Shown: piece by piece, positions 2,590 to 57,084 of the stretch
Position numbering within the stretch: position 1 is the first letter of the stretch
Layout: each line of letters begins with the position of its first letter
Assembly: GCF_033153115.1 (NCBI RefSeq)
Contig: NW_026889821.1
Span: 1,612,001-1,676,000 of the forward strand
DNA length: 64,000 bases
Direction: 5' to 3'
DNA from: Saccostrea echinata
Taxonomy: Eukaryota
Notes under the pieces: model-generated
What the model saw: the letters and a program-made list of their open reading frames with translations, nothing else
The model's database searches: none
What the model was told of the DNA's origin: nothing
Position numbers and translations under genes: made by a program

Positions 2590-3784
2590 TTAGCCCCTTC
2601 GTGGATTTAGCTCTTTCCTCAATATCTTGTAACTGTTGTTTTGTCTCCTGAACAAGAAGGTGCCTATGTACATTGCAACAAGAAAACTTGCTAGGCCCAC
2701 CAGACTTAGGATTCCAATTCGAAATTGTTCACTTCTCTTTTGACTTTCATTCTTAACAATAATATCGAGAAAGTTGACTTCCACTGATTTTCCCGTTGTT
2801 ACTTTACTCTCATTCATTTCTTCTTTCGTATAGAAAGAACCTCTGGAGTGAAATTTCGGTTCAGTTTTATCGGTTGTTACCTCAATTCCTGAATCTTAAA
2901 AAAATGACACAACCAGCATTAGTCTCTTAGCATAAAATACAAAAATGTATTCCCCCTGTCCATAAAAAGTATGTATATATTAACATTTGCATTGATTTCT
3001 ACTAAACCCACCATGAAATTGATTTGAATTCCATTTTCTTGTATTGACATTCGTCGAAATAAAGATGGAGACCACAGAGTGACGTCAAAGTGAGGCAAAC
3101 GAGATTGTAACGAAACTATAACGATATTGTGCAGCATAAAAAAAATAATTATGATAAATAAATAAATAGGTATATTTTTTTGTTTAAAACATATTAAATG
3201 TAAATAAAAGAATTTTAAATTTGGTTTGTAGAGAGATTCACCAAATATGCCTACGTGACAACCTGTGTGATTAACACACCAATAACACTAAAAAAAACTT
3301 TAAATAATCAAAAACATTCACTTTGTAATCAATACGAAGAGACAAACACCTTTTGACGTAGGGAGAATATAATTATATGAATATCTGTCAATTAACATAC
3401 TTGGCAAATTATATTGGAAGCAACCTTTGGCATAATGACAGCTGCTTTTATCACAGATGCATAGGCCCTGGCAGAAACGTCCAAAGGTTGGATAAGGACA
3501 CTCTAATTCGCAATGTTGTCCAAAACGCCCTATTTTACACTCTAGATTAATGAAAAATTAAAAGCAAATTTATCTTATAGTTGACCTTTACCACATTACA
3601 CCTTTAATTGAATGAATAGTTTTTAAATTAAATTAAAAAAAAATAAATGGATGGTTTTAATTAAAAGGATATTGTTGTACATTCTGTACACTCTCCAGAA
3701 AATATGAATGTACAACATTTTTTTTTCTTCATTTCTTAAAATTAAAGAATATGATCAAATCAAAAAAAAAAAAAAAAAAAAAAA

Positions 3785-3818
<34 letters not shown>

Positions 3819-4076
3819 TCACCTACCGACACAAATTTCATTCTTGGTTTCAAACATATAACCAGAACAGCATTTAGGTGGACTATAGATATAAATTAAT
3901 GATTTCATATAAAATATGATTCCTCTCTACATTTCTTCAGACTTTTAAACATAATGATAATGCTATGCACGAATGATAAAAGAAGCATACTTATCACACA
4001 ATTTTTGTGAATGACATGTCACCAACAGCATTAAATAAGAAGGTAAAACATATGATATGATTCGTTCTTCCTCCAT
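2590..4076 (-). CDS. MEGF10/Draper/SCARF-like single-EGF type I membrane protein, short tail (about 195 aa, 4 exons)
   Basis: Exons 4076-3991 (MEEERIISYVLPSYLMLLVTCHSQKLCD, signal-like), 3882-3827 (PPKCCSGYMFETKNEICV), 3541-3401 (ECKIGRFGQHCELECPYPTFGRFCQGLCICDKSSCHYAKGC, EGF-like) and 2894-2590 (alternative in-frame acceptor at 2888; stalk, TM IGILSLVGLASFLVAMYIGTFLF, tail RRQNNSYKILRKELNPRRG). All introns GT-AG, phases 2,1,1, no internal stops. Confidence 0.88.
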
Positions 4077-5360
4077 CGTTAATGTTTAATCTGTGATTAT
4101 GGAGAGTGTTGGATTTTTTCAGAATATGTAAATGCCCTATTTGAATTCAATAATAGTTGCACTTAAACAACCGGAAGAAATGTCTGTATCAACACAGGAA
4201 AGCAACAAGTGCTTTAACGATGATATAACTATTCAATGATATACCNNNNNNNNNNNNNNNNNNNNNNNNNNNNNNNNNNNNNNNNNNNNNNNNNNNNNNN
4301 NNNNNNNNNNNNNNNNNNNNNNNNNNNNNNNNNNNNNNNNNNNNNNNNNNNNNNNNNNNNNNNNNNNNNNNNNNNNNNNNNNNNNNNNNNNNNNNNATGT
4401 TAGAGTTAGTGTTCTTGATACCTTGGATACAAGAAATCTATTATTTGCCGCACATGTCACTCTGACCACAATAGGTAACTTAAAATGTATACACGTACAT
4501 ATGTTTGGATCTTATATGTGTTCCACATTGTGATCTTCTGAATAAGATCCGGAGGATTAATTGAAATTTTTCAAAATCTATATATAACCACAGGTATGTT
4601 GTTGTGATCGGAAATTTTTCAATTCTATTTATAAACATTAAATTCTTAGTTGAAAATTTTTTTAGCTTATTTTCACTTCTATCACTTTATAGGTATTTTT
4701 TTTTTCAATTTTANNNNNNNNNNNNNNNNNNNNNNNNNNNNNNNNNNNNNNNNNNNNNNNNNNNNNNNNNNNNNNNNNNNNNNNNNNNNNNNNNNNNNNN
4801 NNNNNNNNNNNNNNNNNNNNNNNNNNNNNNNNNNNNNNNNNNNNNNNNNNNNNNNNNNNNNNNNNNNNNNNNNNNNNNNNNNNNNNNNNNNNNNNNNNNN
4901 NNNNNNNNNNGACTCTGTCATAAAAACTTAAAATGGGGACTAAGCGATTTCATGACATATTTGGTATTGTTTAACTCATTTTACTTCGTAGGTATCCTGG
5001 TTTAAGTAGATGGAGTGAGTCTTTGAGATTGAATGATATTTCCATGAATTTAGAAAATGGGGACCCGGACGTGCCAATCTGAGGACTCTGTGTAAAATTA
5101 GGGGACCCATCTTCTCATAAGCAAACAGAATTGGGGACCTAAATTCAGTCCCTCATACACAAACAGAGAAAAATGGGGACCCTAATTTATAAATCAAAAT
5201 TTGGGTTGGGTAGACTTATGAAACGCACGGTGTTTATTTATTTGGTGTCTGTTTTCGTGCCATATATGGCCATAGATATACATGTTTTTGTTATACACTG
5301 AATTTCGGTAATTTGGTTGACTTGTACATACAGGCCTTTTATAACTCCAAATTAGCATCT

Positions 5361-54921: not shown

Positions 54922-56098
54922 TTAAAGGTTATGAATATTTAAATTTTCTCCAGTGTTCTATGCAAATACGTTTACATTTCGATAAGAAGAGCTACAGAGA
55001 GAGCCCGAGAAGCCACGAACGTTTGTCTGTCAAGTGTTACGTTACACAAAGTATGTTACGTTCATGAAAATATAAGTTGTCTATATTCTAGATTTTAAAC
55101 ACATATCATCAAATATTGTCAGCTAGTAGGTGTATTTTGGATTTAAAAAAAAAAAAAAAAAAAAAAAAATATGAACTTGCACGCTCTTCATCACTACATA
55201 AACACTTAAAATTTGACATTTCTTACATAACGTACCGATTGACAGACATTGCCTGAATACTATCGTAACGGTGACAGACAAAACGAATGTCTGTTCATGT
55301 TACGTGAATCAAACGGGTTCATTCAGATTTATACGTTCAGTGTATTAAACCTAGAAGTATTTTTATTTAAGAATATTACTGTATCATAAGGCAAAATTTG
55401 TCTTTATAACTTAAACAATACAATTTTGTAGTTGTTTTCTTGCACTTTTTAAAACGAGTCTGTCAGGGTTACGTGCATCCGTACATGTTACGATATAGGT
55501 TTAATCTATATGAAATAATTTATTTTTTAAAATTTCATTAGTATTTTCATAAATAATAATGTCTTGTGTATTATAATTTCCAAGAATAAAAGATAAGCTT
55601 TGAATGACAAATTTTATTGGCTCGTTTCAAACAGGTATTGCTCAAGAAATATCGTAACATGACAGACATGGTGGAAATTTTGTATGTGACAAAGCGTATA
55701 GCAGAGATTTATTTTTTAAAAATTCAAATTTAAAATCTATAAGGAATCAAAATTTGAATAATGTCCATTTCTCACGGCAACATTATCTTTTTGATAAAAT
55801 AATGAAAGTTTATGGTTCATTTGGCTGGGCAAGTAAAGGAGTCTGTCAGTGTTACGATCATCAGTTTGTGCATCAAAAGAAGCTTAAAAATCTTTTTTCT
55901 TCTATGTAAGAGTGAAAATTTTTTTGCATTGTTTAAGGAATTGTTCAATTTTATTTTTTACAGATTATTTGTATTGCTAAGCATCAGAAGTGTTCTTTAA
56001 TCATGTCACGTTTTATCATACGTCTGTCATGTTACGCTATATGTCTGTCATGTGTTACGTGACACATATTTCAAACATTAATAAAATATTCATTTTTG
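54922..56098. mobile_element. Probable non-autonomous DNA transposon with dispersed GTCTGTCA-n-GTTACG motifs
   Basis: Motif in both orientations near 55025, 55264, 55458, 55653, 55840, 56022 and 56043; weak TIR ATGAATATTT / AAATATTCAT after a left TTAA. Confidence 0.45.
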
Positions 56099-56314
56099 AC
56101 TTGATTATCTATTCAAACATTTTTTTGGGCTATTTAGAGTCAAAACTTCAAATACACATAAAGAAATCTAAGGAAAAAAGGTGTCTACAGAATTCTTTAT
56201 TTGTCCTCCCAGATGTACTCAAGAGCGAATATTGAGCCGCATACTTGTTGGAAATGAGATGCCCTATTTCTTCTCTACCTAGTAGATGAAATTTTTGTAC
56301 TATTGTAAATTGTT

Positions 56315-57084
56315 TCAGCTCCTCTTGTGAGTTTTCGTTCGATTAAGTATTGAGGAAAAATGCACGAATCTCCGAAGAGGTTGAATAGGATGAAAAACAT
56401 GACGACGATAGGAACATTCATATTTGAAGCTTTGTTGCCAAGTCACGTGCCTGTCTAGAACAACTTAGCTTGTAGCATCGCTAAGATTGACTTTAATGAG
56501 GTATAATAATACTACTTACGTAGAACAATTCGTTTTCTGGGAGTACAGACTTCTATGGTTTTGTTCCAGTGGGAATCTGGAAGGCAGTGATAAATGAAAT
56601 TCTCTGGTTCGGTACAATATTGTTGAACTGAAGCACAATTCATTTTGTCGTTTCTTTTTCTCCATTCCTCTTGATTTCTTGGACATTGTACTACATCTTT
56701 GACAGTATCCTTAGACTTTGGGCATATTCCGTAGATATTCTGAAATAGAATAAAAAATCAACTTTAAAAGTTATTTGGCAAAAAGATAGATTGCGTTTTT
56801 CTTCCAGTTCTTGAACTGTATTTATTATTTATATTTCCATTTTTCAGTATTTAATGATTGAATACAGGTGCATTTTCATTTAAAGTAGAACAGTGCATGA
56901 TTAATTGTTTACAATGTGTTTCAGTAATTACAGAAATATAACATTTGAAGAACTCTTAAAAATTCTACAGGAGTAATATCTCACGCACTTTTCCCTGTCT
57001 TTTTCCTACAGCAATATCAGCCACTAAAACAGTTATTAAAATCCCAAATCTCGCTCCTGCTGAGATATACAGGGTAGCATGCAT
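56315..57084 (-). pseudogene. Third, divergent member of the 10-Cys family (copy C); exons 1-2 intact, exon 3 damaged
   Basis: Exon 57084-56989 (MHATLYISAGARFGILITVLVADIAVGKRQGK, phase 0) and exon 56739-56520 (NIYGICPKSKDTVKDVVQCPRNQEEWRKRNDKMNCASVQQYCTEPENFIYHCLPDSHWNKTIEVCTPRKRIVL, phase 1). The downstream block lacks CxEFN, and its QQSFKYECS and SCFSSYS parts are in different frames. Absent from the ORF track. Confidence 0.7.

Follow-up and report, generated by a model that had tools for sequence, protein, structure and literature searches.

Clusters of genes for surface receptors have been described in snails of the genus Biomphalaria. Of the 11 genes in the PTC2 region 8 are single-pass, and alleles diverge by 3-85% (PMC7494358); the SudRes1 region is rich in MEGF genes (PMC12297450). 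In Nimrod-type receptors a CCxGY motif precedes the first EGF-like repeat (PMC4073527), and the ITAM of Draper reads YXXI-X11-YXXL (PMC13148388). For bivalves, a profile-based count gave 182 TIR proteins in S. glomerata (PMC6289776).

Here we describe a 64,000-nt stretch of Saccostrea echinata DNA (the window), in which six multi-exon gene models (A to F) were built, with GT-AG at every junction, together with the remnant of one exon:

2590..4076, minus strand: gene A, a 193-aa single-EGF receptor (exons 4076-3991, 3882-3827, 3541-3401, 2888-2590)
28093..30663, plus strand: gene B, a 189-aa 10-Cys protein (exons 28093-28152, 29202-29457, 29962-30078, 30443-30518, 30603-30663)
32036..33592, plus strand: gene C, a single-EGF receptor (exons 32036-32118, 32233-32300, 32513-32647, 32860-33592)
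37885..39539, plus strand: gene D, a 188-aa 10-Cys protein (exons 37885-37944, 38220-38466, 38986-39102, 39275-39359, 39482-39539)
40037-40103, plus strand: decayed EGF-exon remnant of C type, on the downstream side of D, matching the place of C with respect to B
41663..45628, plus strand: gene E, 444 aa (exons 41663-41829, 43570-43940, 44217-44455, 44777-45083, 45378-45628)
42740..42750, plus strand: alternative first exon of gene E, from which a 392-aa form results; when spliced, this form equals P0043 letter for letter
49566..57084, minus strand: gene F, a distant 10-Cys protein of 200 aa (exons 57084-57010, 56739-56520, 53475-53359, 50313-50226, 49668-49566)

Each of the six products contains a hydrophobic segment (N-terminal, internal or both), and surface-type genes are enriched, all 6 models being predicted membrane or secreted proteins; on this point a sequence-only reading, which had every intact gene encoding a predicted surface protein, was right. 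The models of B, C, D, E and F are backed by homologues in the databases, and that of A by its matches to C and to SCARF1 EGF repeats. No further genes were detected among 56 other ORFs scanned with Pfam (chosen from 119 by excluding those with Ns, those in a minisatellite and those over the six genes), a single one of which had matches, both under the cut-off. PADLOC matched nothing relevant, and six gene IDs of these families are absent from the main text of the literature searched; supplements may list them. The cluster is loose: its coding share is about 6.6%, and 24 kb without a recognised gene lie between A and B.

The explanation which we consider probable is that of a local tandem-duplication neighbourhood, in which a unit of one 10-Cys gene and one single-EGF receptor gene was copied beside the mollusc-wide gene E, the three families acting separately. 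The pair B-C would thereby have given rise to D and the remnant that follows it.

Gene A specifies a predicted signal peptide, a CCxGY motif, one EGF exon of the SCARF/MEGF type, a stalk, a membrane segment and a 20-aa tail with a single YxxL. Its EGF exon is identical to that of C at 19/40 positions and matches the SCARF1 EGF weakly (E 0.5); the EGF of C matched an EGF-domain chain at E 8.3e-06, SCARF1 being the weaker match. The CCxG[YF] motif before the first EGF-like repeat is CCSGY in A and CCAGF in C, and with one EGF exon apiece neither gene contains an array of EGF or NIM repeats. The long tail of C carries YHEI-x10-YDPL, a YxxI-x10-YxxL arrangement which is conserved in the homologue P0042 and both halves of which also match the ITIM consensus; NPxY does not occur in this tail. 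In the window C is interrupted by a 1-nt frameshift at a run of T (about 33154-33159) within the membrane segment. P0042 reads through the break, the change of frame falling between 33161 and 33176. Since identity past this point is still 109/138, the frameshift is either an assembly error or a null allele of very recent origin. An intact C would be a Draper/SCARF-type receptor, the paired Tyr motif of which may recruit a Src/Syk-type kinase or a phosphatase for engulfment, and A may be a short-tailed relative with an endocytic or decoy role. The EGF remnant scored 50 in an alignment for which 60 shuffles gave a mean of 30.9 and a maximum of 40, none (0/60) reaching 50; of C exons 1-2 and A exons 2-3 nothing was found above shuffle level. 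The two single-EGF receptors and the remnant proposed earlier are therefore present, though with C frameshifted they are not both intact.

The 10-Cys proteins B, D and F have the same ten cysteines in the mature domain. B has a predicted signal peptide and a GPI-like C-terminal tail, and D is its tandem paralogue (137/184 identical residues). F is 36-37% identical to both and ends in a hydrophobic C-terminus; its exons 4 and 5, at a distance of 3-7 kb downstream, are easily missed, and exon 5 (49668-49566) is the least certain. The earlier description of three 10-Cys proteins, one of them damaged, is correct as to number only, F and the two other models all being open. A GPI-like tail (a run of small residues, a spacer and a terminal hydrophobic stretch) was recognized, by pattern alone, in B, D, F and 26 selected homologues; the 13-residue hydropathy of the C-termini in this set is 1.85-3.52, and the ends of B and D comprise Arg-containing residues. 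A comparison of the Cys domains of B and D gave Sd 41, Nd 24, dS 0.86, dN 0.085 and dN/dS 0.10, values which indicate strong purifying, not diversifying, selection. Exon 3 differs by 10 synonymous and no replacement changes, and because of these 10 synonymous differences gene conversion between B and D at this exon was ruled out. The proteins are predicted GPI-anchored glycoproteins, and their conserved domain may bind a conserved ligand.

In both M. gigas and C. angulata the 10-Cys family is spread over two or more chromosomes (50.4 and 37.3 Mb in the former, 61.9 and 39.8 Mb in the latter). Unnamed clusters made up 29 of the 30 Atlas matches, the top three being mainly molluscan, and the named matches are all from oysters, in a word-seeded search that is weak for absence. 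The domain matched nothing in Pfam or the PDB by sequence, which does not prove a new fold. Its structure model is mediocre (mean pLDDT 65, pTM 0.51) and gave no fold match at E 0.001 and none at Z ≥5. A profile comparison of the 10-Cys family with E revealed no homology.

The EGF remnant follows D as C follows B, in the same orientation, which is the basis for proposing co-duplication of the [10-Cys + EGF] unit; since only one EGF exon is left after D, the proposal rests on one remnant of 67 bp. Co-duplication would account for the interleaving of the families. The neighbourhood of 10-Cys genes and E appears to be retained in two other oysters: in S. cucullata the gene IDs are 134282296/298/304 and 305, on one contig of 110,552 bp, and in O. 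edulis 125674267 and 125674261, on one 98.3-Mb chromosome. This synteny is one of gene-ID order and of a shared contig or chromosome, rather than of coordinates, and such adjacency may or may not be ordinary genome-wide. It suggests that the 10-Cys/E linkage also holds in these two oysters; conserved linkage, the absence of which had been named as a refutation of the first proposal, thus appears to extend to two oyster genera.

The product of E consists of a hydrophobic segment, an ectodomain of ca. 105 aa with coiled-coil character, a second membrane segment, a linker and a cytosolic alpha/beta domain. The ectodomain contains a conserved Cys-Pro-Trp and a conserved N-glycan sequon, the latter in 22/28 alignment rows; no LRR was matched by Pfam in E or its relatives. 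In the 392-aa form the first hydrophobic segment would serve as a signal peptide. Forms of 391/392 aa are also found in O. edulis, C. virginica and a cluster containing M. gigas; since the short form equals P0043, records from S. echinata do not count as independent of the window. Across oyster genera 153-154 of 170 residues are identical in the cytosolic domain and 71-74 of 104-106 in the ectodomain. A search of 1.84 billion representatives yielded 58 matches, and of ten relatives that were looked up eight were named molluscs (Pinctada twice, Tegillarca, Potamilus, Ylistrum, Gigantopelta, Physella and Biomphalaria). Two metagenome scans for the E locus gave 85 and 225 pattern matches, none of which was confirmed. 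Two Atlas leads, a golgin-like chordate cluster (0.87) and DUF4630 (0.82, 18% of members), both fell below 0.9 and were not confirmed. E is thus an old, slowly evolving, low-copy gene of bivalves and gastropods. The label of a birth-and-death locus suits the 10-Cys and single-EGF families, with their tandem copies, remnant and frameshifted copy, but not E.

A second S. echinata scaffold carries counterparts, either alleles or paralogues, of C (73/102 and 109/138 identical), D (142/162) and E, which differs at 13 of 392 positions; this amounts to 72-79% identity for C and 88% for D as against 97% for E. Such divergence would fit a hypervariable immune locus as well. The window might then be a recognition cluster of the kind represented by Biomphalaria GRC, PTC2 and SudRes1, in which unrelated surface genes stay side by side, parasites drive their diversification and the genes work independently, with no physical complex. 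The surface nature of all the genes, the frameshifted copy and the remnant agree with this, as do the single-pass genes and the allele divergence of PTC2 (8 of 11 and 3-85%; PMC7494358) and the MEGF-rich SudRes1 (PMC12297450). The strong purifying selection on B and D (dN/dS 0.10) and the high conservation of E argue against it, and we regard parasite-driven diversification as a doubtful explanation of the cluster as a whole. Three observations were counted against separately acting families: the surface-type character of all six genes, the apparently retained 10-Cys/E neighbourhood and the divergence on the second scaffold.

An AF2 model of the cytosolic domain of E (pTM 0.78) shows five strands alternating with helices, a flavodoxin-like alpha/beta fold which fits the TIR, receiver and flavodoxin matches obtained. 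The best structural match is the TIR domain of RRS1 (Z 11.4, rmsd 3.1, 132 residues aligned of 141 in the target), and the TIRs of RPS4, SNC1, RUN1, SIGIRR and TRAM recur in the lists. Close behind are the AdiA wing domain (Z 10.8), IRGQ (10.3), vWA (10.1) and EngA (9.8), and with Foldseek a receiver domain ranks first. The TIR, TIR_2 and SEFIR profiles of Pfam did not match E or its relatives at E-values up to 1 or 10. The catalytic Glu of NADase TIRs sits in the helix that follows strand three. At the start of the putatively corresponding helix E and its relatives have Asp in 17/24 rows (oysters included) and Glu in 4/24, a comparison made by position in the fold; the domain is probably without NADase activity. 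The model is compatible with a TIR-like fold and does not prove it. E is best read as an unannotated membrane protein of molluscs in which a cryptic TIR-like domain is predicted, and is the part of the locus worth following up. It is predicted to oligomerise through the glycosylated coiled coil and in this way to cluster the cytosolic domain as a scaffold. Of the "TIR-like receptor" of the earlier reading the TIR-like domain survives as a candidate, being the top fold match, and the TLR shape does not.

The proximity of the other folds, the receiver in first place with Foldseek and the silence of the TIR and SEFIR profiles would also fit an E that is not immune at all, namely a secretory-pathway or housekeeping membrane protein with a receiver-, wing- or pseudo-GTPase-like scaffold. 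The 10-Cys proteins would then be matrix- or chitin-associated, for which there are weak leads (CBM_14 at E 0.03, under the cut-off, and an Atlas match at 0.83), and the label of innate recognition would fit at most the EGF genes. The first rank of TIR over 132/141 target residues, the recurrence of five other TIRs and the lack of a visible P-loop motif after the first strand weigh against this, and we judge it improbable.

The sequence-only reading had the GPI-type 10-Cys proteins handing ligand to E or C by the logic of CD14-TLR4, which would preserve the linkage. The GPI-like tails, the TIR match of E, the ITAM-like spacing in C and the 10-Cys/E adjacency in two oyster genera can be cited in its favour. 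The ectodomain of E is, however, a short conserved coiled coil that contains neither LRRs nor an Ig module; gastropods and bivalves other than oysters also have E, whereas the named 10-Cys matches are all from oysters (by a search weak for absence); and 10-Cys genes reside on other chromosomes too. CD14 and TLR4 are unlinked in mammals, and linkage is therefore not predicted by such a system; here the families were probably interleaved by co-duplication. When the 10-Cys domain (P0010) was modelled in a complex with two E ectodomains (P0043), the score was 0.22, below the mark of 0.34; this run used no alignments, its controls were not folded, and it is evidence neither way. Co-receptor logic is thus unsupported and very improbable. 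Just as little credence can be given to its widest version, a new pan-molluscan receptor class with a glycosylated coiled-coil ectodomain and a Pfam-invisible TIR, triggered in oysters by linked, expanding GPI-anchored 10-Cys binders in a convergent CD14-TLR-like system assembled from unrelated components.

Under the tandem-duplication explanation the cluster is one more molluscan neighbourhood of tandem surface genes, of relevance to oyster disease breeding only if the locus turns out to be polymorphic and, like PTC2 in snails, linked to resistance. Of more lasting value is family E, a membrane protein conserved among molluscs, with a cytosolic domain that models best as a TIR and is invisible to TIR profiles. 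If the TIR assignment holds, profile-based counts in bivalves, such as the 182 for S. glomerata (PMC6289776), overlook a whole class, and signalling by E is directly testable.

The locus resembles GRC (PTC1) and PTC2 of Biomphalaria (PMC7494358), by description, in being a molluscan cluster of domain-poor, partly unrelated surface genes that have been duplicated and lost. The snail clusters are mapped resistance loci, and their single-pass proteins have hyperdivergent alleles; the three predicted GPI-type genes, the purifying selection on B and D and the high conservation of E set the window apart. With SudRes1 of Biomphalaria sudanica (PMC12297450) it shares clustered MEGF-type receptor genes and domain loss, but the SudRes1 receptors have multiple EGF, galactose-binding and phosphatase domains, and A and C one EGF unit and unstructured tails. 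A and C are like the Nimrod-type receptors Draper, CED-1, MEGF10 and SCARF1 in the N-terminal CCxG[YF] (PMC4073527), the SCARF1-like EGF and, in C, the paired Tyr motif; they differ from these receptors in the single EGF unit, the lack of NPxY, the spacing of x10 rather than x11 in C and the frameshift of C in the assembly. The likeness to CD14-TLR4 lies in a GPI-type protein accompanied by a membrane protein whose cytosolic domain is TIR-like (both predicted), but neither the 10-Cys proteins nor E have LRRs, and the ectodomain of E is a coiled coil. The invertebrate ecTIR-DC and TM-SEFIR proteins (PMC6321704) are detected by TIR and SEFIR profiles, whereas E is recognisable from its predicted fold only; it is like them a conserved invertebrate protein with a TIR/SEFIR-type fold, predicted in its case, and an atypical ectodomain.

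Four N gaps interrupt the window, which is AT-rich eukaryotic DNA with a coding share of about 6.6%. We read it as probably a co-duplication neighbourhood of 10-Cys and single-EGF genes lying beside the conserved gene E, the families acting separately. Six multi-exon genes were rebuilt, every junction being GT-AG; their proteins match oyster records, with Saccostrea nearest. The models and one exon remnant are:

4076-2590, minus strand, gene A, single-EGF receptor
28093-30663, plus strand, gene B, 10-Cys protein
32036-33592, plus strand, gene C, single-EGF receptor
37885-39539, plus strand, gene D, 10-Cys protein
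40037-40103, 67-bp remnant of a C-type EGF exon (score 50, reached by 0/60 shuffles)
41663-45628, plus strand, gene E, candidate TIR-like membrane protein
57084-49566, minus strand, gene F, 10-Cys protein

A and B are 24 kb apart, and the interval holds repeats, among them a minisatellite (10862-13262; 64-bp unit, ca. 37 copies, 82% matches), and no recognised gene. A Pfam scan of 56 further window ORFs gave hits in one, both under the cut-off. Within intron 3 of F, broken ORFs at 50764-51520 (+) lack a Pfam hit; from their motif we take them to resemble a decayed mariner-type transposase. By eye, a stretch at ca. 62600-63350 (minus strand) resembles a decayed coding exon that includes a hydrophobic segment and is interrupted by numerous stops; it is possibly another dead membrane-protein gene.

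In both A and C, a CCxG[YF] motif and a single 8-Cys exon are accompanied by a stalk and a membrane segment. Their 8-Cys exons are identical at 19/40 positions and match EGF repeats of SCARF1 and of another EGF-domain chain; a passage in PMC4073527 gives CCxGY ahead of EGF-like repeats as the mark of the Nimrod superfamily. The tail of A has 20 residues and one YxxL. That of C carries YHEI-x10-YDPL, kept in its homologue P0042 and close to the YXXI-X11-YXXL of Draper (PMC13148388, figure legend); each half matches the ITIM consensus as well, so the motif may signal with either sign. The sequence-only reading had recognised both receptors and the remnant, and these stand, but it took C to be intact, and the frame of C is broken in its membrane segment at a T run (ca. 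33154-33159, plus strand) where P0042 reads through. Because identity to P0042 is no lower after the break (109/138) than before it (73/102), with no downstream decay, the frameshift either marks a null allele that arose very recently or is an error of the assembly.

Ten cysteines are common to B, D and F, and all three frames are open; the one damaged member reported earlier was not confirmed, the damaged gene of the locus being C. Like 26 selected homologues that have complete ends, they finish in a run of small residues, a spacer and a hydrophobic terminus, an arrangement that a GPI signal would be predicted to have. Members are numerous (35 of 42 candidates matched) and occupy at least two chromosomes in M. 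gigas and likewise at least two in C. angulata; the family has neither a Pfam match nor a PDB sequence match. F is a distant paralogue (36-37%) on a long tree branch. B and D form an old tandem pair on which purifying selection has acted (Cys domain dS 0.86, dN 0.085; 10 silent and 0 replacement changes in exon 3); this speaks for a conserved ligand and against a binder caught in an arms race. A hypervariable recognition cluster of the GRC/PTC2 type, as described in parts of PMC7494358 and PMC12297450, is a possible but clearly less probable account. The EGF remnant lies after D just as C lies after B, and the orientation is the same, so the simplest history would be duplication of a [10-Cys + EGF] unit with later decay of the second EGF gene, a proposal that rests on this one remnant; the other EGF-receptor exons sought did not score above shuffles.

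Two weak chitin-binding, peritrophin-type leads were obtained for the 10-Cys family, from exon 2 of F (56521-56739, minus strand) and P0012 (CBM_14 E 0.03, under the cut-off; Atlas 0.83). They lend something to the idea that the E and 10-Cys proteins are not immune at all, which we consider improbable.

The 444-aa model of E matches full-length O. edulis and C. virginica records and has two membrane segments. An 11-nt alternative first exon, 42740-42750 (+), yields a 392-aa form identical to record P0043, whose first hydrophobic segment would act as a signal peptide; 391/392-aa forms also occur in other oysters. The two hydrophobic segments are separated by a coiled-coil-like stretch that bears a sequon in 22/28 rows and a conserved Cys-Pro-Trp; on these features it likely faces the outside of the cell or a lumen, and the C-terminal domain the cytosol. 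That domain is identical at 153-154/170 positions across oyster genera and at 50/157 to Biomphalaria. Among 1.84 billion proteins searched by profile there were 58 hits, and eight of the ten relatives looked up were from named bivalves and gastropods. Ylistrum scallop P0130 ends in the same domain and has a much longer coiled coil between its two membrane segments; Pinctada has two E-like genes (P0074/P0075) on different long contigs. Atlas gave weak pointers to chordate golgin-like and DUF4630 clusters.

AlphaFold2 gave a good model of the cytosolic domain (pTM 0.78), whose top structural match is the RRS1 TIR (Z 11.4, rmsd 3.1, 132 residues aligned at 7% identity); behind it come the AdiA wing domain (10.8), IRGQ (10.3), vWA (10.1) and EngA (9.8), while Foldseek ranked a receiver domain first. 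The helix after strand three opens with an acidic residue (Asp in 17/24 rows, Glu in 4/24), which may correspond to the TIR catalytic position. On this modelling E is likely a clustering-dependent TIR-like scaffold. The earlier "TIR-like receptor" thus survives as a fold resemblance; Pfam finds neither TIR nor SEFIR in E, and it is not a TLR.

Linkage elsewhere was read from gene IDs and a shared scaffold, contig or chromosome rather than from coordinates; gene IDs tend to run in positional order, with exceptions. One S. echinata scaffold, not independent of the window, bears 133177299 (10-Cys), 300 (C-like), 301 (D-like) and 302 (E); one 110-kb S. cucullata contig bears 134282296, 298 and 304 (10-Cys) with 305 (E); and one O. 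edulis chromosome bears 125674267 (10-Cys) and 125674261 (E). The neighbourhood therefore probably dates back to the Saccostrea-Ostrea split or earlier, though these are all oysters and ordinary oyster microsynteny may suffice. The counterparts on the second S. echinata scaffold (P0001/P0042/P0010) diverge from the window very unevenly, 21-28% for C, 12% for D and 3% for E. This would be striking between alleles, but they may be paralogues. The CD14-TLR4-like logic first proposed is allowed by the parts list but draws no positive support from the ectodomain, conservation or wider distribution of E, nor from the dispersal of the 10-Cys genes, and we regard it as the least probable account.

Neither family E nor the 10-Cys family is annotated, and six of their gene IDs are absent from the main texts searched. 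The interest of the locus is carried mostly by family E. Molluscs are known to have surface and immune gene clusters, including the TIR and fibrinogen clusters of Saccostrea described in part of PMC6289776, and beside these the present locus is another.
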